From a virus (Duplodnaviria > Heunggongvirae > Uroviricota > Caudoviricetes): a stretch of 10,801 bases of DNA. The position numbers were made by a program, and so were the translations under genes. Location: IMG/VR virus record IMGVR_UViG_2529292726_000024, positions 1 through 10,801 of that record; one strand, written 5' to 3'. Positions 1 to 10,801 of this stretch are shown here, piece by piece (the stretch's first letter is position 1; every line of letters starts with the position of its first letter). The notes below the pieces were generated by a model. It worked only from the letters and a program-made list of their open reading frames with translations. It was not told where the DNA came from and ran no database searches.

Positions 1-223
1 GTAGCATCTCCAGCAGAGTTGTTGGTGTCAGAGCCGGCCTCTCTTTCAACAGAGGAACAAGCATGCTGTCCCACACAGCTTCCAGAGGATCTTTGCGTGT
101 GCGCCAGTGCCGAACACTGTTTTTTGCCCACTCTCCTTTTTCGATCCGACGACCAGAACGGACTGAGATACCAGCCTTCATGGCCGAGATATGCTGAGTT
201 ATACCTTTCTTACGCTGAGTCAT
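1..223 (-). CDS. hypothetical protein, N-terminal fragment (ORF continues beyond window start)
   Basis: Minus-strand ATG at 223-221 opens a frame (MTQRKKGITQHISAMKAGISVRSGRRIEKGEW...) that stays open to base 1; in-frame TAA upstream at 295-293 bounds the start. Absent from the ORF track because it has no stop in the window. Basic N-terminus, no clear Shine-Dalgarno. Function not recognised. Confidence 0.3.
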   Translation of the reverse strand, partial: MTQRKKGITQHISAMKAGISVRSGRRIEKGEWAKNSVRHWRTRKDPLEAVWDSMLVPLLKERPALTPTTLLEML

Positions 224-364
224 ATAGTAACTGACCTGAGAAGTATTGAGCGTCACGCCATTTCCTGTTGGATCATGTAAATGACACTCAGGTTACAAAA
301 CCGGCCAGAATAATCGGCGCCAGGCGGACTGAGTTATTGTCGTCTCATACTCCACGCTTATTTT

Positions 365-1705
365 TTAGGTAACGTCTAAGATTCGCTCAATGAAGCGCAT
401 TTGTTCGAGGTTTTGTTTAACGCGAATGCTGATCCCTCCCTGCTGGTTACGTGAACCAGCAAAGTAGAGACGAGCCTCTCCTTTCGCTTCTTCTTCTTCG
501 GTTTTGTTGATCGTTATTACCAGGTCAGCAATACGTACTTTTTCGATGTTGTCGGCAGCGTGCATCATTGTGGCAACTTCTGACGCGCCACCTTCACGGT
601 TTGTCTGCGATGCCGTGATCCCAGCAACGTTATGCTTGTCATAAAGAGCACGTAAATCGGTGTAGATACTACGAATGTTGGCGCGATCATCACGAAGGTC
701 ATAACTGGCACGCATCAAATCTGCGTAGTCGACAACAACCATGTCAGGCACCATGCCGTTGGCTTTCATGCTGTTAAGCACACGGTCCAGATCTGCCGGT
801 GACATACTTCCTGACGGACGCTCAACAACCCACAAACTACCAATACCCTTCGTAGCTCCCAACTCTGCCAACTTGCGATGAACTTCATCGCGCCGTTCCA
901 CCAACTTGGACATTTCCGTCTCCGACAATCTTGCATCAAAACGGTCGGATAAAATGGTGGTGTGAACCTCCAGCGAGAGATACAGAACATTGTAGCCAGC
1001 AAGTGTTGCGTTTATGGAAAACTCACCCATTGCGGTCGATTTACCGGATTTAGCGAACCCCATGAAGAGCACCATTTCGCGCTTTGCCCAGCCTTTTTGG
1101 TACAGCACCCTATCGAGAAGAGGGAGTCCAGTTGTAATACTGTTTGGTACATACTCCTCTGAAGCCTCATATTCACGCGCTTTCAATCGCTCACTTGCGG
1201 AGGTGTAGTAGTCATAGATTCCGGTCGCTTCGTTCGATCCAATCTGCTGAACCTTGGCCATGATTGCCATCGCCCCCTGAAAGTCGCCTTTCTCTTTCAG
1301 TTCAGCAGCCTTAATCAGAGCATCATCAAACGCTACACTTTTTGCGAAGGTTGATACCTGGTCAACCATGTACGAGGTATCGGACAATTTTTCTGCAAGA
1401 ATGCGCTTAAACGCAGCAACAACATCGGCGAATAGTTCCTCACGGATAGTCTTATCGCGTTTCGCACGCTTAAGCATATCCAGAATTGCAGATGAAGAGG
1501 GCGCGCTCTTGTACATACGGTAATAGCCCGAAACCATATTAACCAATATGGCATTGGCCGCATTGGCAAATTGGCTAGGCACAACCAGATCTCCCGCACG
1601 AGTAAGAAACTCGTGATCACGACAAAAATATGCCGTCAGTCTGTTCTGGAAATCTTCATCAAACTCTTCGGACAGCCCGCGTCCTGTATGGCAAAGTTCG
1701 GTCAT
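365..1705 (-). CDS. DnaB-family (SF4, RecA-fold) replicative DNA helicase
   Basis: 446-aa ORF; Walker A GFAKSGKST; DnaB-like motifs VVVDYADLM (Walker B/H2) and ITASQTNRE (H3); SD AAGGAA 5 nt upstream of ATG at 1705-1703. Family assignment from motifs seen in the translation. Confidence 0.82.
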   Translation of the reverse strand: MTELCHTGRGLSEEFDEDFQNRLTAYFCRDHEFLTRAGDLVVPSQFANAANAILVNMVSGYYRMYKSAPSSSAILDMLKRAKRDKTIREELFADVVAAFKRILAEKLSDTSYMVDQVSTFAKSVAFDDALIKAAELKEKGDFQGAMAIMAKVQQIGSNEATGIYDYYTSASERLKAREYEASEEYVPNSITTGLPLLDRVLYQKGWAKREMVLFMGFAKSGKSTAMGEFSINATLAGYNVLYLSLEVHTTILSDRFDARLSETEMSKLVERRDEVHRKLAELGATKGIGSLWVVERPSGSMSPADLDRVLNSMKANGMVPDMVVVDYADLMRASYDLRDDRANIRSIYTDLRALYDKHNVAGITASQTNREGGASEVATMMHAADNIEKVRIADLVITINKTEEEEAKGEARLYFAGSRNQQGGISIRVKQNLEQMRFIERILDVT

Positions 1706-1748
1706 GTGCTTTCCTTTGTTTTTTAAACAAATTGTTTTCTAGTATTAG

Positions 1749-2489
1749 TTAATTAGATAGGGGATCAATAAACCGCCGTGCTTCTTCCAGTTCTTCTGGA
1801 AAGTGGGCGTAAATAAGGCGCTCTGGAACGATTTCCATTAGCCAGATAGCGGAGAAAATTGCGCGTATGCGCTTGCTGCGAGGGATGGTGCGCAAACGCT
1901 CCAGAATCCACTCAAAATAGCTTTCCTGAATCGGGTTGAACTGCATGTCTCCCATATGCTTAAAGCTAACCAGAGAGTCATCCAGACGGGTTGTTGCGCG
2001 TCTGGCTAATTTCTCTTCAAATATCTCAATCAGTTCTGGCTGCCATAAATGCTGTGGGCGCGGCAGCTTGTCCCACAGCCGTCGTGCAGCTGCGGAAAGA
2101 ACGGTGGAGATAAAGTAGTCGTATGAGCAGCAATAGCGATCCGCAAACTGGCGTGCTTTCCATAGCGACGTTTTATTGGCAGTCGACAACTCCTGATAAG
2201 GCAGACGTTTTAACCCGGTGGTGAACGGAGCTGTTTCAAAGTGTTCGCGACCGTGCGTCAGCATGATATTTGAGTACTGACGTTTGTATGCCTCCGTAAA
2301 AAGACAGGTGGCCATGAGAGGATGCATGTCGCGGTAATCAAACCACTTCGTCTCGAAGAGTTCAGCCTCGTCTTTACAGCGCGACAAACCAATGTTTTCA
2401 GCGACCCACTTGTCCATAACAGCGGTATTCCACTCTGTCATGAAGTCGTACTGGTCGTTGTCGATGGTATCGAAAAAGATTTGGCTCAT
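1749..2489 (-). CDS. hypothetical protein, immediately upstream of the helicase gene (possible replication initiator or helicase loader by position only)
   Basis: Long ORF, 43-nt gap to helicase start, same strand. First ATG at 2489-2487 has SD AGGTGA 5 nt upstream; the track start at 2498 is a GTG. Aromatic-rich, no motif recognised. Confidence 0.6.
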   Translation of the reverse strand: MSQIFFDTIDNDQYDFMTEWNTAVMDKWVAENIGLSRCKDEAELFETKWFDYRDMHPLMATCLFTEAYKRQYSNIMLTHGREHFETAPFTTGLKRLPYQELSTANKTSLWKARQFADRYCCSYDYFISTVLSAAARRLWDKLPRPQHLWQPELIEIFEEKLARRATTRLDDSLVSFKHMGDMQFNPIQESYFEWILERLRTIPRSKRIRAIFSAIWLMEIVPERLIYAHFPEELEEARRFIDPLSN

Positions 2490-2498
2490 GTGGCTCAC

Positions 2499-2591
2499 CT
2501 GGTGGGTAGTTACTTACTTATCACAATGAGCGGATGATAGCGACTGGTGGCAGTTTTTGGAAGTGAAAACGGAAGGGAGTTGTTCTGGTGG
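2499..2591. repeat. three direct CTGGTGG heptamer repeats in the divergent control region (candidate iterons/operators)
   Basis: CTGGTGG at 2499-2505, 2544-2550 and 2585-2591 (spacing 45 and 41 bp); the first overlaps the SD of the 246-aa gene on the opposite strand. None is preceded by G, so none is a canonical Chi octamer. Confidence 0.4.
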
Positions 2592-2714
2592 TGTCTTTTA
2601 AAAGACCTGCTTCCGTATATATTTAATAAGTTACTTATTATTTATATACAGAAACAGGCTCCTAATGGATACCAAGAACAACATAATTTGACTCCAACCC
2701 CAGATGCTATGTCA

Positions 2715-2748
2715 TTGACAGATTTATCAAGGGAGATCATGTTAGAAT
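2715..2748 (+). promoter_or_regulatory. candidate sigma70-type promoter for the 352-aa ORF
   Basis: TTGACA at 2715-2720 and extended -10-like TGtTAGAAT at 2740-2748; spacing 22 bp is longer than optimal, so this is weak evidence. Confidence 0.25.
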
Positions 2749-2778
2749 CAGTGTTTTAGCCTCGTGGATATTGTCACC

Positions 2779-3837
2779 ATGCGCATGAATAGACTTCCAG
2801 GATATGGCCTTCCCGAACTGGCTTTTTGGCCTCAGCCTAAATATGAACGGAATAAATGGTCGATGTTCTGTCTGAAACTCCGTAATGATGGAACCCTTGC
2901 TTGGTATCGGCGATATGTTGATCGTGGTATGCCAAACCACGCTTTTGATGACGACTACGATAACTATCCTGAAGCAAGAAAAGCGGCATTAGAGCTGAAT
3001 AAAAACGTGAGCTTTGACATTGAAAAACTTCCTCTATCTATGTTTCAAAAGAAGTCATTGCGTTTGAAAGTTGACAAAGCACTCAAAGCCAAATCACGTC
3101 TCATGGATGAAGAGCATATAATGCTCAACGAAGCAATTAAGGCACACGCCAACGATCCGCGAGTGACATTAAATGAGTTAATAATTAACCCAGATTACGA
3201 AACTTTGCGTCAACCCCTTTTTGACGTGCTAAGCGAGATGCCTTACTTACATTTTGTTTTTCTTCCCAAATTCCAAGTTTCACTTCAACTCGTTGCTCCT
3301 AACACTTGGGAATGTTCATATAACAACAAAGCTAAGACAGCGAAGATCTGCTACCAAGAACGCATAGCCAGAGGTTTTGGTTTATCAGGTGCTGCACATT
3401 GGGGAAAAACAAAAGCGACTATTCGCTCAATGCTTCTGCCGCGTGCTAACCGGTTACTGCAACTCGCCAGCGTAAAAAGAATGCTGGATGAAGCTCTCAG
3501 GAATGGGCAAAAGGTACTGGTTGTTGGCAACTTTGTTTTCTGGTTTGAGGACAAAAATCAGGTAGGTTGGAGTGTTAAAGTTGCTAGCGAAAGCGAAACC
3601 ACCTCAAGAGGCAATACGCTCTGGAAAGAAGGAACTATCATTTCAAAAAATCACGGTCGAATTGTCGTGCTGCCGTATACAAAAGAAAACGGTAAACATG
3701 TAAAAGGTTATACCAAGAATGCCCCTAACGACGGCAACGCAATTCCGAGACATAAGGATGAGTATGTCGAGTTGCCCTTTGAAATTTTGGATGGTGACTT
3801 GATGTTCAGTCTGTTCGGTGAGCTTAACTACGAATAG
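2779..3837 (+). CDS. hypothetical protein (352 aa from ATG 2779; 357 aa if the GTG at 2764 is used), orphan accessory gene of unknown function
   Basis: Uninterrupted ORF on the strand opposite to both flanking modules; terminator-like hairpin downstream; AT-richer than neighbours by hand count (3001-3060 about 32% GC versus about 45% for 1381-1440 in the helicase). No Walker, HTH, TM or nuclease motif recognised. Start codon uncertain; no strong SD. Confidence 0.6.
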   Translation: MRMNRLPGYGLPELAFWPQPKYERNKWSMFCLKLRNDGTLAWYRRYVDRGMPNHAFDDDYDNYPEARKAALELNKNVSFDIEKLPLSMFQKKSLRLKVDKALKAKSRLMDEEHIMLNEAIKAHANDPRVTLNELIINPDYETLRQPLFDVLSEMPYLHFVFLPKFQVSLQLVAPNTWECSYNNKAKTAKICYQERIARGFGLSGAAHWGKTKATIRSMLLPRANRLLQLASVKRMLDEALRNGQKVLVVGNFVFWFEDKNQVGWSVKVASESETTSRGNTLWKEGTIISKNHGRIVVLPYTKENGKHVKGYTKNAPNDGNAIPRHKDEYVELPFEILDGDLMFSLFGELNYE

Positions 3838-3854
3838 CTTTCATAGAACGAAAT

Positions 3855-3892
3855 ATTTCTAAGGCTGTCCAATGCAGACCAGCCTTAGAGAT
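3855..3892. terminator. bidirectional terminator-like hairpin between convergent genes
   Basis: Stem 3855-3867 pairs with 3880-3892 (core CTAAGGCTG / CAGCCTTAG, 9 perfect bp, extendable to 13 with one wobble), 12-nt loop; T-rich flank on both strands. Lies between the stop at 3835-3837 (+) and the stop at 3900-3898 (-). Confidence 0.45.
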
Positions 3893-3897
3893 TTATA

Positions 3898-4257
3898 TCA
3901 ACCTTTCTTCATTAACTCGCGTTTAATTTCATCGGTACGCATCGTGACATCGGCAGCGGTGATCGCCTCATTCAATTTCACGATGTCCTCGATTTCCTGC
4001 GGTGACTTCTCTGCCAGATGGAAAATGGCTGCTCGAATCACGTCAGAACGAGTGAACTTCTCGAAGCGAGGGATGAACTTCATCATCTCCAGCAGTTCGA
4101 AGTATTCGTCCTCCAGTGACATTGTGCGGCTTTTAATTTTCTCTTTGCCACGAGTCGGGCGTCCCTGTGGTCTGACTGGTTGGCGCAAAGGAGTTGTGTT
4201 CTTAGCCGGTGCATCAGGCTCTTTGCGCTTTGCTAGGTCACCCATTTTCATGGACAT
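3898..4257 (-). CDS. small partition-locus partner protein (ParG/ParB-like centromere-binding protein candidate)
   Basis: 119-aa ORF whose ATG (4257-4255) overlaps the ParA stop (4259-4257) as TAATG; basic, Pro-rich N-terminal tail and short C-terminal domain, typical of small partner proteins of ParF-type ATPases. Assignment is by context, not motif. Confidence 0.5.
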   Translation of the reverse strand: MSMKMGDLAKRKEPDAPAKNTTPLRQPVRPQGRPTRGKEKIKSRTMSLEDEYFELLEMMKFIPRFEKFTRSDVIRAAIFHLAEKSPQEIEDIVKLNEAITAADVTMRTDEIKRELMKKG

Positions 4258-4925
4258 TATTCTTCTTCCTCCAGACTCAACAGATAATCTACAAATTCTT
4301 CAAACTCGGCTTCCGCCTTTTTGTCGCGCTCGCTACCGGTCATTTCAAAGATAGAACGACCAGACTCTTCCGCATCATCATAGACGTTGCGGTTATATAG
4401 ATTGACTGGCGCAGACTCGATTCCAAACGTCTCAACAATCTCTTTAGCCGCCAGAATGCGAGACACTTGTGATGGCAAAGCCGGGCACTGGTTCATGACC
4501 GCGCGGACCTTCACTTTATCGTTTACATTGCGAACATTGTCGATAATAGGATCGATGTCACGTAAAGATTTCAAATCACGACGCTTAGGACGCAGCGGGA
4601 TAATGATAACGTCAGCCATCAGCATCGCTTGTCGCTGAATTTCGGAGTCGAAGCCACCAGCATCTACCACTACAAACTCAGCTCTACCCTGAAGCGATTT
4701 TAGGTGCTTAATGATGTCATCCTGAACGTATGCAAAAGGAATCAGCTCAAGGTCTTCGTTCTGTCGACGGTCTTCACACCAGCTCGTTGTCGTGCGCTGA
4801 ATATCTATATCGGTAATATAAACCTTCTTCTTCTTTTTGACTTTCAGGCAAACGGCAATTTGCTGGGCAACGGTGGATTTGCCAGGCCCGCCCTTTGTGC
4901 CGCCAACCACAAAGATCTTGGTCAT
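4257..4925 (-). CDS. ParA/ParF-family partition ATPase (deviant Walker A)
   Basis: 222 aa; deviant Walker A GGTKGGPGKST near the N-terminus; acidic C-terminus; small size typical of type Ib ParA. Confidence 0.8.
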   Translation of the reverse strand: MTKIFVVGGTKGGPGKSTVAQQIAVCLKVKKKKKVYITDIDIQRTTTSWCEDRRQNEDLELIPFAYVQDDIIKHLKSLQGRAEFVVVDAGGFDSEIQRQAMLMADVIIIPLRPKRRDLKSLRDIDPIIDNVRNVNDKVKVRAVMNQCPALPSQVSRILAAKEIVETFGIESAPVNLYNRNVYDDAEESGRSIFEMTGSERDKKAEAEFEEFVDYLLSLEEEE

Positions 4926-4960
4926 TGGAGAGTTCCCTTTGCGTATATAATTATCGTCTG

Positions 4961-4973
4961 AAACAACTTGTTT
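4961..4973. promoter_or_regulatory. palindrome upstream of parA-like gene (candidate operator/centromere element)
   Basis: AAACAA-c-TTGTTT at 4961-4973, about 36 bp upstream of the parA ATG. Additional inverted repeat GTACGG-N7-CCGTAC at 5105-5123 in the same intergenic region. Confidence 0.25.
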
Positions 4974-5128
4974 TCTTATATGTGATATAGCCTAAATGCC
5001 TACGGCTGCGGTGTAAAGGTTAAATGGTAGGTTGTGATTAACAATTGGCAAACATAGCTTGTATTTGTCTGTTGAAAAAAGTAACAATGACCTCTATATT
5101 ACAAGTACGGTGATATGCCGTACACAAT

Positions 5129-5188
5129 TTGATAATGCACACGTAATGGGCTATAGCCTTTTAAAGTAATTTTTGAGTCGAAAACTCA
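5129..5188 (+). promoter_or_regulatory. candidate promoter and operator of the toxin-antitoxin operon
   Basis: TTGATA (5129-5134), 17-bp spacer, TATAGC (5152-5157); downstream inverted repeat TGAGT-cgaaa-ACTCA at 5174-5188, positioned like an autoregulatory operator. Confidence 0.3.
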
Positions 5189-5243
5189 GTTTGAACAGAG
5201 GAGATTGATGGCCTTCCTACATCACGGCCATCAGGAGGAATAC

Positions 5244-5513
5244 ATGTCAGCACTAAAAAAGCAGCGCATCGATTTGAGATTAACCGATGACGATAAAAGC
5301 ATCATCGAGGAAGCTGCCGCAATGTCTAACCAGAGCATTACTCAGTTTATGGTTAGCAGTGCATCTGAACGTGCCGTGAAAGTTATAGAGCAACACCGTA
5401 GACTAGTTCTGAATGAAGAATCCTGGAATCTGGTTATGGACGCTATAAGCAATCCTCCGGCACCGAACGACAAGCTGAAACGAGCTGCTGATCGTCTGAA
5501 AAGCATGGAGTAG
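5244..5513 (+). CDS. type II antitoxin, DUF1778 (RHH) family, AtaR/TacA/KacA-like
   Basis: MSALKKQRIDLRLTDDDKS... matches the conserved N-terminus of DUF1778 antitoxins as I remember them. SD AGGAGG 5 nt upstream of ATG 5244; an alternative in-frame ATG at 5208 also has an SD. Stop is 7 nt before the toxin start. Confidence 0.8.
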   Translation: MSALKKQRIDLRLTDDDKSIIEEAAAMSNQSITQFMVSSASERAVKVIEQHRRLVLNEESWNLVMDAISNPPAPNDKLKRAADRLKSME

Positions 5514-5520
5514 TTTACTC

Positions 5521-6042
5521 GTGGATAATATAAAGATAGAAATTTTCTCTGGAGAGAAAGATTATGATTTGAATGGTTTTGATTGCGGTGAAGAATCACT
5601 AAATGCCTTTTTAACCAACCACTTAAAAAGGCAGCATGAGGGAAAAATTCTTCGCGCTTATGTGCTTTGCACGAAAGAAGGCAGACCAAAAGTGTTAGGG
5701 TATTACACTTTGTCAGGTAGCTGCTTTGAAAAGGAGTCCTTACCTTCAAGAAGCCAGCAAAAGAAGGTACCTTATCGGAATGTTCCAAGTGTTACTTTGG
5801 GTAGGCTGGCTTTGGACAAGTCCCTTCAAGGTCAAGGATTTGGCTCAATGCTTGTAACACATGCAATGCGCGTTGTGTACAATGCATCTCTTGCTGTAGG
5901 CATTCATGGACTTTTCGTTGAGGCGTTAAATGACAAAGCCAAGGCGTTTTATAAAAGTTTAGACTTTATCCAGCTGGTTGGTAACAACGAGCGTTCTTTG
6001 TTCTATCCTACAAAATCTATCGAAAAATTGTTCGAAGAATAA
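5521..6042 (+). CDS. GNAT-family N-acetyltransferase toxin (AtaT/TacT/ItaT-like, aminoacyl-tRNA acetylating)
   Basis: 173 aa, GTG start; acetyl-CoA-binding motif LQGQGFGSML; conserved FDCGEE and VGIHGLFVEALN segments remembered from AtaT-family toxins; directly downstream of the DUF1778 antitoxin. Confidence 0.8.
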   Translation: MDNIKIEIFSGEKDYDLNGFDCGEESLNAFLTNHLKRQHEGKILRAYVLCTKEGRPKVLGYYTLSGSCFEKESLPSRSQQKKVPYRNVPSVTLGRLALDKSLQGQGFGSMLVTHAMRVVYNASLAVGIHGLFVEALNDKAKAFYKSLDFIQLVGNNERSLFYPTKSIEKLFEE

Positions 6043-6047
6043 TGTAC

Positions 6048-6065
6048 TCCCCTCAAGTGAGGGGA
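6048..6065 (-). terminator. terminator-like hairpin between the converging TA operon and the minus-strand membrane cassette
   Basis: TCCCCTCA (6048-6055) pairs with TGAGGGGA (6058-6065); on the minus strand it follows the stop at 6076-6074 and precedes a U-rich stretch; the plus-strand flank is not U-rich. Confidence 0.35.
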
Positions 6066-6073
6066 ACTTCGCA

Positions 6074-6289
6074 TCACCAACCGCAAACTCTCTCTCCCAT
6101 CGTATTGTGAAAAAGGATTTGGCGTTCGGTTTCTTCGGTCATCACATCATTATTGCTGATATAGATAGGCCCAGCTCCATCGCAGAACAATACGCTGGCG
6201 GTTTGTGGTTTAATGACGCACCCACTTATCATACAACTCACGATGAACGGCAGAAGCATCTTTCTGACGTATTTTATTGCTCGTCTCAT
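6074..6289 (-). CDS. candidate o-spanin-like outer-membrane lipoprotein, overlapping the 3-prime end of the upstream gene in the +1 frame
   Basis: Lipoprotein signal MRRAIKYVRKMLLPFIVSCMISGC with lipobox ISGC (alternative start at ATG 6259). Overlaps the 6210-6461 gene by 80 nt in another frame, the classic overlapped Rz/Rz1 arrangement. Mature part is not proline-rich, so the assignment is tentative. Confidence 0.4.
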   Translation of the reverse strand: MRRAIKYVRKMLLPFIVSCMISGCVIKPQTASVLFCDGAGPIYISNNDVMTEETERQILFHNTMGERVCGW

Positions 6290-6461
6290 TCACCACTTCC
6301 ACTGTGCTTTGAAGTCGTTTTCTGTCTTCCTGTTTTGCCTTCTCTTCCATTGCTCGTCGCGCCGCATTCCCGCCCATCGTGTAAGCGCCGACAAGAACGA
6401 AAAGAACGGCAGCCAGCGTAATCAAAGCAACTTTTAGCTTTGTCATCAGGCTGCCTAGCAT
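6210..6461 (-). CDS. candidate i-spanin-like protein (N-terminal TM helix, charged periplasmic helix)
   Basis: ATG at 6461-6459 with SD AAGGGA upstream; MLGSLMTKLKVALITLAAVLFVLVGAYT is a single N-terminal TM, followed by a charged helical region (AARRAMEEKAKQEDRKRLQ...). Short (83 aa) for an Rz-like protein. Confidence 0.42.
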   Translation of the reverse strand: MLGSLMTKLKVALITLAAVLFVLVGAYTMGGNAARRAMEEKAKQEDRKRLQSTVEVVNETSNKIRQKDASAVHRELYDKWVRH

Positions 6462-6462
6462 A

Positions 6463-7155
6463 TTAGACCATCCCTTTCTGGTGTTTTCTTCCCTGCGACC
6501 AGGCAATGAATCCTGCCACAACAATAGTGGCAATACCGAAGATGATGCGTACTGTATCCCCGCTAGAGATATGACCTTGTGCTTTATCCATAGCAGCGGA
6601 AACCTGCGGCATAACATCGGCCAGCTGCGCCAGACCAATACCTGCTGTAACAGTTGCGCCTGCGGTTTCTTTAGTTACAGGAACAGCCTTCACGGTTTTC
6701 ACCGGCTTAACAACGCCAGCTCGACGCAGACCTTCCTCAATAACTTCTACCGCATACCAGGTGTTCAGCGTTTTTAGCGGGCCTCGGCCATTCTCGTGGC
6801 GAATGATTGCCTCAACCAAAGGTCGAAGGATGTCGTAATCATGCAGATCGATGATCATGTCTGCGGTTACACCAACGGCTTTAGACACCTCATTAATGTA
6901 GGCGTCAGTATTGTTTTCATTCGGCGGTGCCCAACGTTCAATAACTTCACGAATGGTATCGATACTTGAGCCGTCTTTTGCGCGACGTTTGTCGTGGTAG
7001 GTAATTAGAGTCACCGCCAGCGCACGAATCCCCCAAACAGGGTCTTTAAACGTGCAAAAGCGCGGTTCGTCTGGATTCGCAACCAGACCTTGCCACGGTG
7101 ATCCTTTATCAAGATTACCGGGGTTATTATTACGAATGCCTCTCGGAGTCTTCAT
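6463..7155 (-). CDS. tail-anchored membrane protein (C-terminal TM); endolysin-like only by its position in the cassette, unverified
   Basis: 230 aa from ATG 7155 (SD AGGAG 7 nt upstream; the track start at 7182 is a GTG). N-terminal soluble domain with RNNNPGNL, C-terminal TM IIFGIATIVVAGFIAW. No catalytic motif of a known muralytic family recognised. Confidence 0.4.
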   Translation of the reverse strand: MKTPRGIRNNNPGNLDKGSPWQGLVANPDEPRFCTFKDPVWGIRALAVTLITYHDKRRAKDGSSIDTIREVIERWAPPNENNTDAYINEVSKAVGVTADMIIDLHDYDILRPLVEAIIRHENGRGPLKTLNTWYAVEVIEEGLRRAGVVKPVKTVKAVPVTKETAGATVTAGIGLAQLADVMPQVSAAMDKAQGHISSGDTVRIIFGIATIVVAGFIAWSQGRKHQKGMV

Positions 7156-7168
7156 CCTTGATCTCCTG

Positions 7169-7492
7169 TTATTGCAGTCCACTTTTTACGCCATACGCGG
7201 CTAACCCCAAAAGCAGTGCGGTAATAATGAACGACGTTATTTTAGAAACAATGCCGCCAAAGAACCCACTTGAGATGGAATCTAACCGGTTAAGGAGTTT
7301 GTCCAGATTGGAGTGTTGAATACTATGTTGCGCCGGGGTCATATCACCAAAGTAGGTTTTCAGCTGATCATTGACCTCCTGGCCAATTTCTTCACGTAGC
7401 TCTTTACCTAATTTGCCAACAACCTCCCGAGCAACGATCGCGGCAATACGCTCAACTTGCTCTGTTGTAACGCCCGCCATCTCGTTCGACAT
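7169..7492 (-). CDS. small tail-anchored membrane protein (holin-like by position, unverified)
   Basis: ATG at 7492 has a strong SD GGAGG 5 nt upstream (alternative ATG at 7504 lacks one). About 85-aa charged N-terminal region then a single C-terminal TM ITSFIITALLLGLAAYGV. Stop is 13 nt before the next gene. Confidence 0.4.
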   Translation of the reverse strand: MSNEMAGVTTEQVERIAAIVAREVVGKLGKELREEIGQEVNDQLKTYFGDMTPAQHSIQHSNLDKLLNRLDSISSGFFGGIVSKITSFIITALLLGLAAYGVKSGLQ

Positions 7493-7573
7493 GTTTTCCT
7501 CCATGAAAAGTCAAATCGGGATGGCGGATTTATATCACATTTCACCCTTTTGTTGTAGGTGTGTACTTACCTA

Positions 7574-7807
7574 TCATTCAGCATTGCAACCGATTGATGA
7601 GAAAGCACCTACTCCAACCCATCGCCAGTTATAGATGCTACCCGCTTTGTATAAGGTATAGTCGTTCACTTTTTTAACAGCATATATGGGTATGACTGTC
7701 TCCTGTCCACCAATGATAGCTTCACCATAACATATAGGTGTCGGCAATTTCTGGCAGCCAGTAAGAGAGAGAACAACAGCTATTGTTAGAAATAATCTTT
7801 TCATCAT
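7574..7807 (-). CDS. small lipoprotein, 77 aa (candidate Cor-like superinfection-exclusion lipoprotein)
   Basis: Signal peptide MMKRLFLTIAVVLSLTGC with lipobox LTGC; starts 4 nt after the stop of the 202-aa gene; size and position after the tail-fibre genes recall Cor-type lipoproteins of lambdoid/N15-like phages, but sequence similarity is not verified. Confidence 0.55.
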   Translation of the reverse strand: MMKRLFLTIAVVLSLTGCQKLPTPICYGEAIIGGQETVIPIYAVKKVNDYTLYKAGSIYNWRWVGVGAFSSIGCNAE

Positions 7808-7814
7808 TTACTCA

Positions 7815-8423
7815 TCAGTTATACAGATTTCTATTTATTACCGGTACTCTGCCATTTACGCTAAAACTATGGCCGCCATTAAGTTGGTTTACGAATATCG
7901 AGCTAACAGTATTTCCATATGCCGCATATCCATAAACCATTGTCATGGCTCCGCCCGGTACTGGAACAGCGAACACATTCGCATATGTTGGGATTATCGC
8001 TGGAGGGTAATCAAAAACATGCCCTCCAGAGCTGTTCCACTCCGTATTATTAAGAAAGGTAAATGAAAGTGGGATATTTGCCGTATTATAGATTTCCTCC
8101 CCTTGTGCATTGAAAAAACTCATGCCCCAAGTTTCTTTTTTGGCTATACCTTTCGAAAATACGTATATCGTGGCACTAGAGTCGCTACCCTGACCTCCGA
8201 AACTGTAAATCACCTGGTTGTTACGCACTATTCTGTTGGCTATTAATGAAACAGCTTTCGAATAGGCAACAAAAATAATCGGTGAACGATCTGGAGATAT
8301 TTTGGTGTTAAACTCTGTTCCGCCGGACAAAGAAACAACCTGCTTTCTCTGAAAAACGATAGGAGACAAAGAAGGAGACATCCAGACCTTCCCGTCAGAT
8401 CGATATATCTTGCTTCCGTACAT
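7815..8423 (-). CDS. hypothetical protein, 202 aa, Gly/Ser/Asn/Tyr-rich, probably beta-rich
   Basis: ATG at 8423-8421 overlaps the stop of the upstream gene as TAATG (translational coupling). No TM segment or catalytic motif seen. Confidence 0.55.
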   Translation of the reverse strand: MYGSKIYRSDGKVWMSPSLSPIVFQRKQVVSLSGGTEFNTKISPDRSPIIFVAYSKAVSLIANRIVRNNQVIYSFGGQGSDSSATIYVFSKGIAKKETWGMSFFNAQGEEIYNTANIPLSFTFLNNTEWNSSGGHVFDYPPAIIPTYANVFAVPVPGGAMTMVYGYAAYGNTVSSIFVNQLNGGHSFSVNGRVPVINRNLYN

Positions 8424-8677
8424 TATTTTTGAAAAACCAATATGTTTAAATTACCACTAGCTCCAGACCACGAAATGGTATTTCCAGAAACCGTAAGACT
8501 TGTGTACTTTCCATTGGTTACGTCCATTATGTAATAGTCGATTCCCAATCCCGCCTCAACCTCATATGTTCTACTTCCTGAACCAGAGGGAGTAAAATAA
8601 TCGAGGTAATAAACAGGGGCCAACGCATTGACCATCTCCTGTCTTGATGGCGACCAAACCTGTGCACCATAGCTCAT
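8423..8677 (-). CDS. hypothetical protein, 84 aa
   Basis: ATG at 8677 with SD AAGGA 7 nt upstream; first gene after the tail-fibre stop; coupled to the 202-aa gene. No motif recognised. Confidence 0.5.
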   Translation of the reverse strand: MSYGAQVWSPSRQEMVNALAPVYYLDYFTPSGSGSRTYEVEAGLGIDYYIMDVTNGKYTSLTVSGNTISWSGASGNLNILVFQK

Positions 8678-8702
8678 AAATATATCCTTATACTTTTAAG
8701 CA

Positions 8703-8725
8703 GGGGCTGGTTTAGCTCCAGCCCC
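8703..8725. other. GC-rich hairpin between the tail-fibre gene and the downstream cassette
   Basis: GGGGCTGG (8703-8710) pairs with CCAGCCCC (8718-8725), 7-nt loop. U-rich flank only on the plus strand, so it is not a convincing terminator for the minus-strand operon; possibly an RNA-stability or processing element. Confidence 0.3.
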
Positions 8726-8737
8726 GATTGAAGTTGT

Positions 8738-10534
8738 TTATTCTTTAGGTGAATTTAACTTCGTTTCAAGCTCCTCAACCCTTTTGGTCAATTGCTGAAT
8801 ATGATGAATGAGTGGTACAACCAAACGCTCATACATCACTCCTTCAGCGACCATACCATTTGAGGAAATACCTTCTGGAGAATCATTATTTGTTGGTTCA
8901 CGCCAATGGACATATTGCGGGGCAATCTCACCAACCTCTTCAGCAATAAGGCCGTAATACCCCCAATCCTTTCGGTCACCTCGACAAATTGAACGATACC
9001 AAACAGGTCTTAATGACAAAAGTTCATCAGCATATCGATCTTGTAATGTTTCAATATCCTTTTTATAGCGCCTTGAAGACGTTGAACGCCAAACTGTATT
9101 GATACCTGGGTTTGGATCAATGTACATATTGGCACCGCTAGTAGTTGTGCCAATATCCCATATAGCAAACCCTCCACTACCGCCTGATTTGACAACCAGT
9201 GTTTCAGCAACAATATCCAGGTTGCCACTATAGCCTGTCAGTGATGATCTGCTTGCATAGGAACTTAGAAGGTTTGCTACCTCTGTTTTCGTGTAAGCAT
9301 TAAGGTTAGCCGCAGTCAAAGTTATATCGGCAGAGCCATCAAACGCCACACCAGCAATTTTCCTTGCTGTCTGCAATTTTGTGGCGGTTGCGGCATTACC
9401 AGTAGTGTTCTGATTACCAGTGGCATTCACACCAGGAATGGAGTCCCTTGATGTATATACCTGCGCCCACGCTGACCATGCCGCAACTGTGTAATCTCTT
9501 CGGGAGCGAATGAAAACCGGCGCATGTGCACCGCTCGTACCACTCCAGCCAATAAGCAACTCGCCCTCACCAGCAGCACTCGCACCTTTCATGTGCAATA
9601 CGTTGCCATACGTGGTCGGGTAGCTATTGTTGTACACCTCATACATTTGAATGCCAGCAGTGCCTTGAGTAGAGCCGCTTAACGCCGTAACTCGGCCACG
9701 AGATACCAATGTATTAATATTGATATCGCCTGAACCATCAAACTTAACACCATTGATGTTTCTCGCTGTTTGCAACTTCGTAGCTGTTGAAGCATTACCG
9801 TTCAAACTACCATTTACGCCACCAGTCACATTTAGTCCATTACCAATTGATACAGCACCGCTGGTATTATTAATTGTAATAGGTCGCAAACCGTTCCATG
9901 AACCTAATGTGTCTCCTGATGCTGTTAGCAGGAAATATGTGTTCGCCCCATCATTACGGATAAAGAACCCAAAGTTACCGTAAGCAATGCGGAAACCATT
10001 TGCATATTTTGAAACGATCTCACCAGAAGACGTTAACCCTCCAGATAATGTGCCACCTGAAAGCGGTAATGCTCCTACATCAGAAGCTGTTGGTTTGTTT
10101 CTAGTGTTATACGCTCTGCGCCATCCAGGTGAATAACTTGAGCCATTAGACACATAGATAAACTCCGCATTAGTGAGTGCACCAGAGACATTTGTCGTAG
10201 TGGCCGTTGTTATTCGAATGGTGTAATTGTTGGTATTATTGCTGAATACTTCTATCACAGCACCCGCCAGTGGAATAATGCCACAACCAGTTTCACTGTC
10301 TGGTATGGATGCACTATTCGCATACGCCCATGCACAACGAGCGATCCATGCTTTCGTACTGAATGCCCCGTTATTTTGCAACAAAGTAACTAACTGGGCT
10401 GTCGTTATTGCCCCTCCATTACTTCCTGTAGTTAACCAACCAGTAGGAGATGCCGGGCAACCTATATTTGCTGGCGACAAGGCAATATTTGCCGAGCCGT
10501 CAAACGACACCCCATTGATAGTACGCGCAGTCTG
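8738..10534 (-). pseudogene. tail fibre protein with C-terminal S74 intramolecular-chaperone domain, 5-prime truncated by IS2 insertion
   Basis: Three copies of the tail-fibre repeat LQTAR-INGV-FDGS; C-terminal domain with SSRRYKKDI (S74 auto-cleavage consensus) and ...VPLIHHIQQLTKRVEELETKL. The reading frame runs into the IS2 left end at 10535, so the first ~45 codons of the 643-aa track ORF derive from IS2. Confidence 0.8.
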
Positions 10535-10801
10535 TAGACTGCCCCCCTGAATCTCCAGACAACCAGTATCACTTAAATAAGTGATAGTCTTAATACTAGT
10601 TTTTAGACTAGTCATTGGAGAACAGATGATTGATGTCTTAGGGCCGGAGAAACGCAGACGGCGTACCACACAGGAAAAGATCGCAATTGTTCAGCAGAGC
10701 TTTGAACCGGGGATGACGGTCTCCCTCGTTGCCCGGCAACATGGTGTAGCAGCCAGCCAGTTATTTCTCTGGCGTAAGCAATACCAGGAAGGAAGTCTTA
10801 C
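10535..10801 (+). mobile_element. IS2 (IS3 family), left end, partial (runs off window)
   Basis: Sequence from TAGACTG at 10535 through the insC start matches the IS2 left end as I remember it (near-identical, one or two mismatches in the terminal repeat). Boundary good to about 3 bp. Confidence 0.85.
10626..10801 (+). CDS. insC: IS2 transposase OrfA (InsC), N-terminal part
   Basis: [58 protein letters not shown] is the recognised InsC N-terminus; SD GGAG upstream; ORF continues beyond the window. Confidence 0.85.

Follow-up and report, generated by a model that had tools for sequence, protein, structure and literature searches.

A 10.8-kb contig of Escherichia coli 2875150, bounded by ISEc10 and IS2, as a highly probable piece of an SSU5-family phage-plasmid

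Salmonella phage SSU5 and its relatives were described as the largest supergroup of phage-plasmids and were defined as a family (PMC7969092). For Escherichia phage Cyrano (pLF82), residence as a plasmid with about 5.5 copies per cell was reported, together with DNase-protected genomes detected by quantitative PCR, siphovirus virions seen by transmission electron microscopy and a 39-fold induction by ciprofloxacin (PMC9928086), and SSU5-type phage-plasmids of clinical strains were found packaged in virions (PMC12977533). Phage-plasmids are further known as vehicles of resistance genes (PMC9600943). The Cyrano map runs from terminase by way of capsid and tape measure to J, fibre, holin, endolysin, Rz and Rz1 and continues, in convergent orientation, with a toxin-antitoxin pair, which is followed by ParA, a small partner, cargo, helicase, primase and ligase. 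The stretch of DNA considered here, referred to as the window, is the entire 10,801-bp contig APXK01000047.1 of draft assembly GCA_000356245.1 from E. coli 2875150. With high probability it represents 10.2 kb of a phage-plasmid of the SSU5 family, which form a separate contig because insertion sequences (IS) at both ends broke the short-read assembly.

When the whole window was compared with phage records by megablast, Cyrano was identified as the top match with 96.8% identity in a patchy alignment over 64% of the window, followed by SSU5 with 82% identity over 46% of the window and then by Klebsiella SSU5-like phages. The search among plasmids returned p503046_111 (CP025888.1) as top match, a closed circle of 111,957 bp from E. 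coli 503046 (human stool, India), which covers window positions 1-10534 in one piece, and base-by-base comparison revealed one mismatch in these 10,534 bp, located at 6491 and corresponding to 99.99% identity. A further circular plasmid, p1_20409 (109,253 bp), was found to be 99.7% identical to the window. The record of p503046_111 is unannotated; it encodes the terminase subunits TerS and TerL, portal, major capsid protein (MCP), tape measure protein (TMP), J, an intact fibre, integrase, repressor, the alpha subunit of DNA polymerase III (Pol III) and the initiator RepA, the latter being only 49% identical to Cyrano RepA, and it also carries two ParB-like proteins. With the window it shares ISEc10 and the adjoining hexamer CTCCAC, the 357-aa cargo gene and the toxin-antitoxin pair, and it differs from it by an intact fibre gene and by the lack of IS2 at the place corresponding to window 10534/10535. 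The element is therefore an already known one, namely a member of the SSU5 phage-plasmid family of which a near-identical closed plasmid is public.

The genes of the window are ordered as in SSU5 and Cyrano, and its core open reading frames all match the same PHROGs as the SSU5-type relatives. From fibre to helicase Cyrano (OV696614) is arranged as the window, with conserved blocks of 96.8-98% identity, and ParA, the partner protein, the toxin-antitoxin pair, the lysis cassette and the helicase are common to both. Differences were identified in that Cyrano possesses no IS elements, carries CYRAN_30 in the cargo slot instead of the 357-aa gene, has no cor region (window about 7575-9255 being unmatched) and encodes a diverged fibre of 1,341 aa which is 85-88% identical in parts. 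Likewise, SSU5 (NC_018843), the type member, follows the order of the window in fibre, two small genes, cor, holin, endolysin, Rz/Rz1, ParA, helicase and primase, the arrangement from fibre to holin with its two small genes and cor being the same, whereas two other genes replace the GNAT toxin-antitoxin pair, a different small gene follows parA, the cargo is different (DUF2971 and others) and a tail-fibre adhesin is encoded by a gene of its own.

The population distribution was derived with the IS-free core of the window (360-7520), which was searched for in 5,426 complete E. coli genomes. This core is present in 264 of them (about 5%) at 487 places, all of which are plasmid and none chromosomal, and the plasmid records bearing it are mostly 100-116 kb long. 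A first-pass annotation, made from the letters of the window, had suggested a prophage replicating as a plasmid in the manner of P1, N15 or SSU5 and had named chromosomal flanks with an integrase as the observation which would speak against this; at the population level no such flanks were encountered, all 487 places being on plasmids, and an integrase alone would not contradict a phage-plasmid, because Cyrano itself has an integrase-family gene. Circularity and the presence of terminase and capsid genes, proposed there as checks, were confirmed on the near-identical proxy p503046_111, which is a closed circle with a full SSU5-type gene set, and each of the gene classes listed there (helicase, ParA, toxin-antitoxin pair, tail fibre and lysis genes) was found at high significance. 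Membership in the SSU5 supergroup was judged on the criteria of Pfeifer et al. 2021, i.e., relatedness, virion genes, plasmid functions, an extrachromosomal replicon of roughly 95-125 kb and the production of infective virions. Relatedness is evident in sequence as well as in gene repertoire; as to virion genes, fibre and lysis genes lie inside the window, and the genes for terminase, portal, capsid and tape measure were found in p503046_111 only; as to plasmid functions, ParA lies inside the window, and the RepA initiator, located outside of it, was seen only in the proxies. Virions are known from Cyrano and other SSU5-type elements, and for the E. coli 2875150 copy their infectivity is doubtful on account of the split fibre gene. 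P1 and N15 share the lifestyle of a plasmid prophage with partition, addiction, virion and lysis genes (PMC7969092). The phage matches of the window included no record of either, so that a relationship in sequence was not detected. P1, a myovirus, uses type Ia ParAB/parS and phd-doc, whereas N15 has a linear prophage with a protelomerase and SopAB. Here, the relatives of the window are circular, the Cyrano virion is siphoviral and the Cyrano annotation contains no protelomerase, and hence the likeness to SSU5 stood and that to N15 had to be given up.

Both ends of the window are points where the short-read assembly broke at multicopy IS copies, and positions 1-349 and 10535-10801 are insertion sequence and not phage-plasmid DNA. 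The left end, i.e., window 1-349, belongs to an IS21-family element which RefSeq annotates as ISEc10, and it matches the istA ends of ISEc10 from 870 E. coli genomes at 98.6-99.7% identity. In p503046_111 ISEc10 measures 2,410 bp and occurs in two identical copies, which fixed its end at ...CGTCTCATA, corresponding to window position 349. CTCCAC also borders the opposite ISEc10 end in p503046_111, and the second copy (89221-91630) possesses a 6-bp duplication of its own, GAGAGG. As the identical copies have different flanks, the end of ISEc10 was assigned to 349 and the target-site duplication to 350-355, and the helicase-primase spacer into which the element inserted is uninterrupted in Cyrano and p1_20409. 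ISEc10 copies in unrelated E. coli genomes were observed to match the window 5-14 nt beyond 349 (window 1-363 compared). A longer ISEc10 was considered and was ruled out by the two p503046_111 copies with their differing flanks; possibly, the extended matches reflect a target-site preference resembling CTCCAC. The right end, i.e., window 10535-10801, shares 97-99.6% identity with the IS2 copies of many records. Since p503046_111 has no IS2 at 10534/10535 and reads straight across, the IS2 junction is private to E. coli 2875150 among the records searched. Both ISEc10 ends, together with the 6-bp duplication, were confirmed in p503046_111, one end and the hexamer being present in the window, and for IS2 the window holds the left repeat and the insA start, the opposite end and the 5-bp duplication lying off the contig. 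As the contig ends inside multicopy IS, its ends are uninformative about replicon boundaries and must not be taken for them; by way of the proxy, a 10-kb IS-bounded draft contig could be assigned to a phage-plasmid with confidence.

The side tail-fibre gene, which comprises 1,383 codons when intact, as in p503046_111 and p1_20409, is interrupted by IS2 precisely at the boundary of codons 785 and 786. A tail fibre had been listed by the first-pass annotation as such, and the gene is indeed present, though with its C-terminal 598 codons only, severed by IS2. This remnant holds the receptor-binding region and the C-terminal intramolecular chaperone domain (Peptidase_S74). In the source annotation it appears as a fusion of 625 aa (8738-10615), which starts at an ATG in the inverted repeat of IS2 and owes its first 27 residues to this repeat. 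Within the fibre gene a 77-nt direct repeat was identified (9324-9400 and 9723-9799, 75% identity, 399 nt apart and in frame), which is consistent with repeated fibre shaft modules and could promote recombination. Because IS2 splits the gene after codon 785, an intact side fibre can very probably not be made by the E. coli 2875150 copy. The J-type central fibre is encoded by a separate gene, which is intact in p503046_111, and the laboratory strain of lambda has no side fibres and still infects via J. By analogy, the element may still be infective, with adsorption or host range altered, since J is separate and lambda infects without side fibres. As its orientation is antisense to that of the late operon, IS2 may exert polar effects on cor and the lysis genes. 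The IS2-split side-fibre allele documented here bears on the question of whether this copy still spreads by infection.

Several points weigh against so complete a view of the window. It ends inside repeats and is itself silent on circularity, extrachromosomal state, copy number and completeness, and the remaining about 100 kb of the E. coli 2875150 copy were seen via the proxy p503046_111 only. Only one IS2 junction is visible, which may mark the border of a deleted or rearranged segment instead of a simple insertion. From the partition locus named in the first-pass annotation a ParF-like ParA stands, and its partner protein and centromere were not found by the searches made. SSU5 is devoid of the toxin-antitoxin pair, which makes the pair accessory; the stabilising role of the pair is here a predicted one, and the putative holin owes its role to position only. 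A sub-case of the phage-plasmid explanation takes the element for a decaying one that is now only a plasmid, kept by ParA and the toxin-antitoxin pair and yielding no infectious particles. It would be in line with the destruction of the side fibre precisely between codons 785 and 786 and with the position of ISEc10 in the helicase-primase spacer, where it parts the helicase from primase and ligase; moreover, defective and hybrid phage-plasmids were reported (PMC12977533), and near-identical elements of the SSU5 group were reported to differ most commonly by the gain or loss of IS (bioRxiv 10.1101/2025.09.12.675607). However, the otherwise complete p503046_111, in which J is intact, carries the identical ISEc10 insertion, the infectivity of lambda devoid of side fibres argues against such a loss, the polarity of IS2 on the lysis genes is hypothetical and the view of this copy is limited to the 10.8-kb contig. 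Decay to a plasmid was considered somewhat unlikely, and the related idea that the E. coli 2875150 copy was caught turning from phage-plasmid into plain plasmid via the IS2 inactivation of the fibre gene is put forward as a weaker proposal.

It was also considered that the segment might be a captured remnant, which IS recombination moved to the chromosome or to an unrelated plasmid of a strain possessing no complete phage-plasmid. IS elements at both segment ends would fit such an event, as would the rare phage-plasmid pieces described as captured by chromosomes, among them the integrated plasmid of S. Agona, which matches the SSU5 repB/parA region and has no structural genes (bioRxiv 10.1101/2025.09.12.675607), and the defective chromosomal phage-plasmids reported elsewhere (PMC12977533). 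The ISEc10 junction and target duplication are, however, base-for-base those of the circular p503046_111, contig breaks at IS are what short-read assemblers are expected to produce, ISEc10 and IS2 belong to different families and hence form no composite transposon, and of the 487 places matched in complete genomes not one lies on a chromosome, which leaves capture highly improbable. An integrated lambdoid prophage that bears a partition ATPase and a toxin-antitoxin pair by chance would account for Cor, Rz/Rz1 spanins and a side tail fibre, which are known from such prophages too, and the fibre and IS segments of the window do match chromosomal prophages. Yet the core from helicase to holin has no chromosomal match in the 5,426 complete genomes, by which this explanation is refuted at the population level, and the genes follow throughout the order known from SSU5 and Cyrano; the probability left to it is close to nil.

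For the SSU5-family phage-plasmid thus favoured, a life cycle may be proposed, the steps of which were shown for relatives and are extended here to the E. coli 2875150 copy. During lysogeny, a circle of about 110 kb would persist as a plasmid of low copy number, replicated by means of a RepA-type initiator outside the window, and the ParF-like ParA would distribute it to daughter cells, probably with the small 119-aa protein encoded downstream. The AtaRT/KacAT-type pair would stabilise the plasmid by post-segregational killing: upon plasmid loss the labile ribbon-helix-helix (RHH) antitoxin would decay, whereupon the GNAT toxin would acetylate aminoacyl-tRNAs and translation would be blocked. 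Following DNA damage, inactivation of the repressor would allow the phage-type replication module to amplify the genome, of which the window holds the helicase, with primase, ligase and Pol III alpha encoded outside. The late operon would then yield a siphovirus particle, its last genes, i.e., those for side fibre, two small proteins, Cor and lysis, being the ones located in the window, and the cell would be lysed by a holin, a membrane-anchored Enc34-type endolysin and Rz/Rz1 spanins.

Table 1. Features of the window (positions in the 10,801-bp contig).
Feature	Position	Strand	Evidence or remark
ISEc10 (IS21 family), terminal 349 bp	1..349	-	istA 5' end reads leftwards off the contig, codons in 2-256
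ISEc10 target-site duplication CTCCAC	350..355		helicase-primase spacer, 10-15 nt past the stop codon of the helicase gene
DnaB-like replicative helicase	365..1705	-	Pfam DnaB_C 5.5e-13; phrog_19 1.1e-87
Conserved phage-plasmid protein, phrog_2500	1749..2498	-	3.1e-113; 246 aa as called by PGAP; directly upstream of helicase
Orphan 357-aa cargo gene (352 aa as called)	2764..3837	+	phrog_22329 1.4e-257; lower GC
Inverted repeat, 13-bp arms	3855..3892		between convergent cargo gene and par operon
119-aa protein, presumed ParA partner	3898..4257	-	phrog_5111 4.5e-80; start overlaps parA stop
ParA/ParF-type partition ATPase, 222 aa	4257..4925	-	phrog_164 4.2e-51; MipZ/AAA_31/CbiA
Divergent control region, parA / toxin-antitoxin operon	4926..5243		best sigma-70-like site of the window and palindrome
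RHH antitoxin, TacA/DUF1778 family (AtaR/KacA-like), 89 aa	5244..5513	+	Pfam TacA1 8.6e-26
GNAT acetyltransferase toxin (AtaT/KacT-like), 173 aa	5521..6042	+	Pfam Acetyltransf_1/7
GC-rich hairpin	6046..6067		31-nt gap between convergent toxin and Rz1 stop codons
Rz1-type outer-membrane lipoprotein o-spanin	6074..6289	-	phrog_1275 2.3e-24; lipobox ISGC
Rz-type inner-membrane i-spanin, 83 aa	6210..6461	-	phrog_1026 4.3e-24; transmembrane segment within residues 1-32
Enc34/M4Lys-type endolysin	6463..7155	-	PDB 7Q47 3.5e-54; phrog_873 2.1e-88; C-terminal transmembrane segment 199-222
Putative holin, 107 aa	7169..7492	-	phrog_5093 2.2e-68 (no assigned function); single C-terminal transmembrane segment 76-106
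Cor superinfection-exclusion lipoprotein	7574..7807	-	NCBIfam lamb_exclu_cor 8.7e-23, above cut-off; phrog_1119 7.8e-30
Conserved protein between fibre and cor, 188 aa as called	7815..8423	-	phrog_425 5.8e-49; syntenic SSU5_024
Conserved 84-aa protein directly downstream of fibre gene	8423..8677	-	phrog_557 2.4e-24; syntenic SSU5_023
Side tail-fibre gene, C-terminal 598 codons (786-1383)	8738..10534	-	Gp34_trimer 7.1e-31; Peptidase_S74 4.9e-07; phrog_3299 E=0
IS2 (IS3 family) left end	10535..10801	+	inverted repeat TAGACTG..., insA start 10626, reads rightwards off the contig

The features of the window are compiled in Table 1; scans with Rfam and for tRNA genes returned no matches in the window. 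As to its overall layout, the first-pass annotation had assumed two-thirds of maintenance region and one-third of late genes, the latter as the start of the virion block, with convergent terminators near 6050 in between. The actual shares are about 56% for replication and maintenance and 41% for late genes, and the late genes turned out to be the distal 3' end of the late operon (fibre, cor, lysis). In place of convergent terminators a single hairpin was found in the intergenic gap, with a stem of 7-9 bp, a z of about -2 and a poor U-tract on both strands, which probably serves as bidirectional terminator and marks the module boundary. The window as a whole shows no excess of terminator-like sites (11 as compared to 9.9 in shuffled sequence).

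The closest characterised partition system is ParF-ParG-parH of TP228, which is of type Ib. As in that system, the ATPase of the window is small, is of the Walker type and possesses no N-terminal DNA-binding domain, ParF of TP228 (4DZZ) is the nearest solved structure and a small downstream gene follows with start-stop overlap; the similarity to ParF is, however, remote (1.2e-10), and against the NCBIfam model ParA_partition an E-value of 1.9e-33 was obtained with a score of 115.7, i.e., below the model cut-off of 180. The 119-aa product of the downstream gene belongs to a small family confined to SSU5-like contigs, the alignment of which displays an invariant N-terminal MGDLAKR, a disordered, basic N-terminus and a linker which is basic and rich in proline, followed by a core of strand-helix-helix-like pattern, SRTMS(I/L)EDE...FTRSDVIRAAI. 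The protein is devoid of detectable similarity to solved RHH proteins or to ParG: nothing significant was returned by phmmer against PDB, by hmmsearch of the family profile against PDB or by Pfam at E<=5, nor by Foldseek against PDB with a single-sequence AlphaFold2 model (mean predicted local distance difference test, pLDDT, 67), nor by hhalign against a ParG sequence. Identity with ParG was considered, and the sequence, profile and structure searches remained negative or uninformative on it. On account of its position and sequence pattern only, the 119-aa protein is presumed to be a centromere-binding, ParG-like partner of ParA. In the Cyrano record it is labelled 'RelE/ParE putative toxin'; a RelE or ParE match was obtained in none of the searches run, and a ParG-like adaptor is the candidate that fits position and pattern better than a RelE/ParE toxin would, so that the Cyrano annotation is probably wrong and is flagged here as such. 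Iterated centromere repeats, as would be expected by comparison with TP228, were not found near the par operon (4920-5250 and 3830-3900), where only scattered two-copy repeats of 7-14 nt and short palindromes occur, and the centromere may be cryptic or located elsewhere. The inverted repeat at 3855-3892 probably acts as bidirectional terminator, for which its position is the only basis.

For the toxin-antitoxin pair, AtaRT of E. coli O157 and KacAT of Klebsiella pneumoniae are the closest described systems, both matched over the full length of toxin and antitoxin and both with the antitoxin gene first. GNAT toxins were reported to acetylate aminoacyl-tRNAs and hereby to block translation, RHH antitoxins neutralising them and autoregulating the operon (PMC7595197, PMC6698736). 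The antitoxin of the window scores 90 bits with Pfam TacA1 (cut-off 21), matches KacA (5ZGN, 6.6e-42) and AtaR (6AJM, 1.3e-40) in PDB and is named TacA family antitoxin by PGAP, and the toxin matches AtaT (6GTS, 8e-79) and KacT (5ZGN, 3.7e-74) over its full length (residues 1-172). The antitoxin gene precedes the toxin gene with a gap of 7 nt, and the pair has both sequence hallmarks of a GNAT/RHH type II system. Whereas the characterised AtaRT and KacAT systems are chromosomal, the pair of the window resides on a plasmid prophage, at the junction of late and maintenance genes, and in part of the family only, as SSU5 and many E. coli relatives lack it. In Cyrano lysogens the toxin-antitoxin genes were found to be expressed 35-60 times the prophage background, and together with CYRAN_29 9-60 times above it (PMC9928086). 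Upstream of the pair, the promoter scan of the window identified its best sigma-70-like site (5072-5100, + strand, 10/12 matches), and just after it, upstream of the antitoxin gene, lies an imperfect 19-bp palindrome, GTACGGTGATATGCCGTAC (5105-5123). The palindrome is a plausible candidate for the antitoxin operator, a role proposed by analogy with the autoregulation by KacA (PMC6698736).

The lysis cassette comprises a two-component spanin, with an Rz protein and an Rz1 lipoprotein encoded by overlapping genes. Rz1 overlaps the 3' end of the Rz gene by 80 nt in a different frame and possesses a signal-like hydrophobic segment (residues 8-26) and Cys24; its gene is uncalled in the source assembly and in the PGAP annotation of p1_20409, and in Cyrano a shorter, non-overlapping version is annotated. 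The endolysin matches Enc34 with its N-terminal catalytic domain and possesses a C-terminal transmembrane segment as do Enc34 and M4Lys, a family which was described earlier (PMC8943055, PMC7143992) and of which M4Lys was reported to lyse without holin (PMC7143992). The putative holin gene is located directly upstream of the endolysin gene and is called holin in the Cyrano and SSU5 annotations. For the two small proteins encoded between fibre and cor, PHROGs and SSU5 use the names 'membrane associated protein' (7815-8423) and 'outer membrane protein' (8423-8677). As no hydrophobic segment or signal sequence was found in either product, these names look unfounded.

The helicase, which is 99.6% identical to that of Cyrano when compared via p503046_111, is encoded by the first gene of the phage-type replication module, with primase and ligase following beyond ISEc10, and the plasmid initiator RepA is located about 30 kb away, outside the window, according to the Cyrano map. 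The phrog_2500 gene next to it is syntenic with CYRAN_31 and SSU5_038, and its product returned no match in Pfam, NCBIfam or PADLOC. Between this gene and the par operon a slot of about 2500-3900 was identified which differs among relatives: Cyrano, SSU5 and most E. coli relatives carry other genes in place of the 357-aa cargo gene, and in other plasmids a LEM-3-like GIY-YIG protein, DUF2971, a P-loop NTPase and membrane proteins were found to occupy it. The 357-aa protein itself has no match in Pfam, NCBIfam or PADLOC and no fold match; its N-terminal fold was modelled confidently and is yet unmatched, its C-terminal motif is nearly invariant and its C-terminus was not modelled as a monomer. 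In total, 346 homologues were identified across Gammaproteobacteria, where they stand alone in accessory positions. In Vibrio the gene follows a Gabija-like OLD-ATPase/UvrD pair and precedes a HEPN-Toprim gene, in a Pseudomonas prophage it lies between SMEK_N and SLATT genes, and in Salmonella and Aeromonas it adjoins integrases. Because the homologues stand alone in slots that resemble defence islands or adjoin integrases, the slot may tentatively be seen as an accessory hotspot and the 357-aa protein as the product of an undescribed, stand-alone gene for anti-phage defence or counter-defence, a suggestion that is unlikely on present grounds; the uncharacterised and widely conserved gene is nonetheless brought to notice here. 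Apart from this, the 779-aa RecA homologue of Cyrano was observed to align to p503046_111 (about 4417-5442) in two pieces only, comprising residues 16-76 and 487-779, which suggests a difference in an intein or insert, or a disruption.

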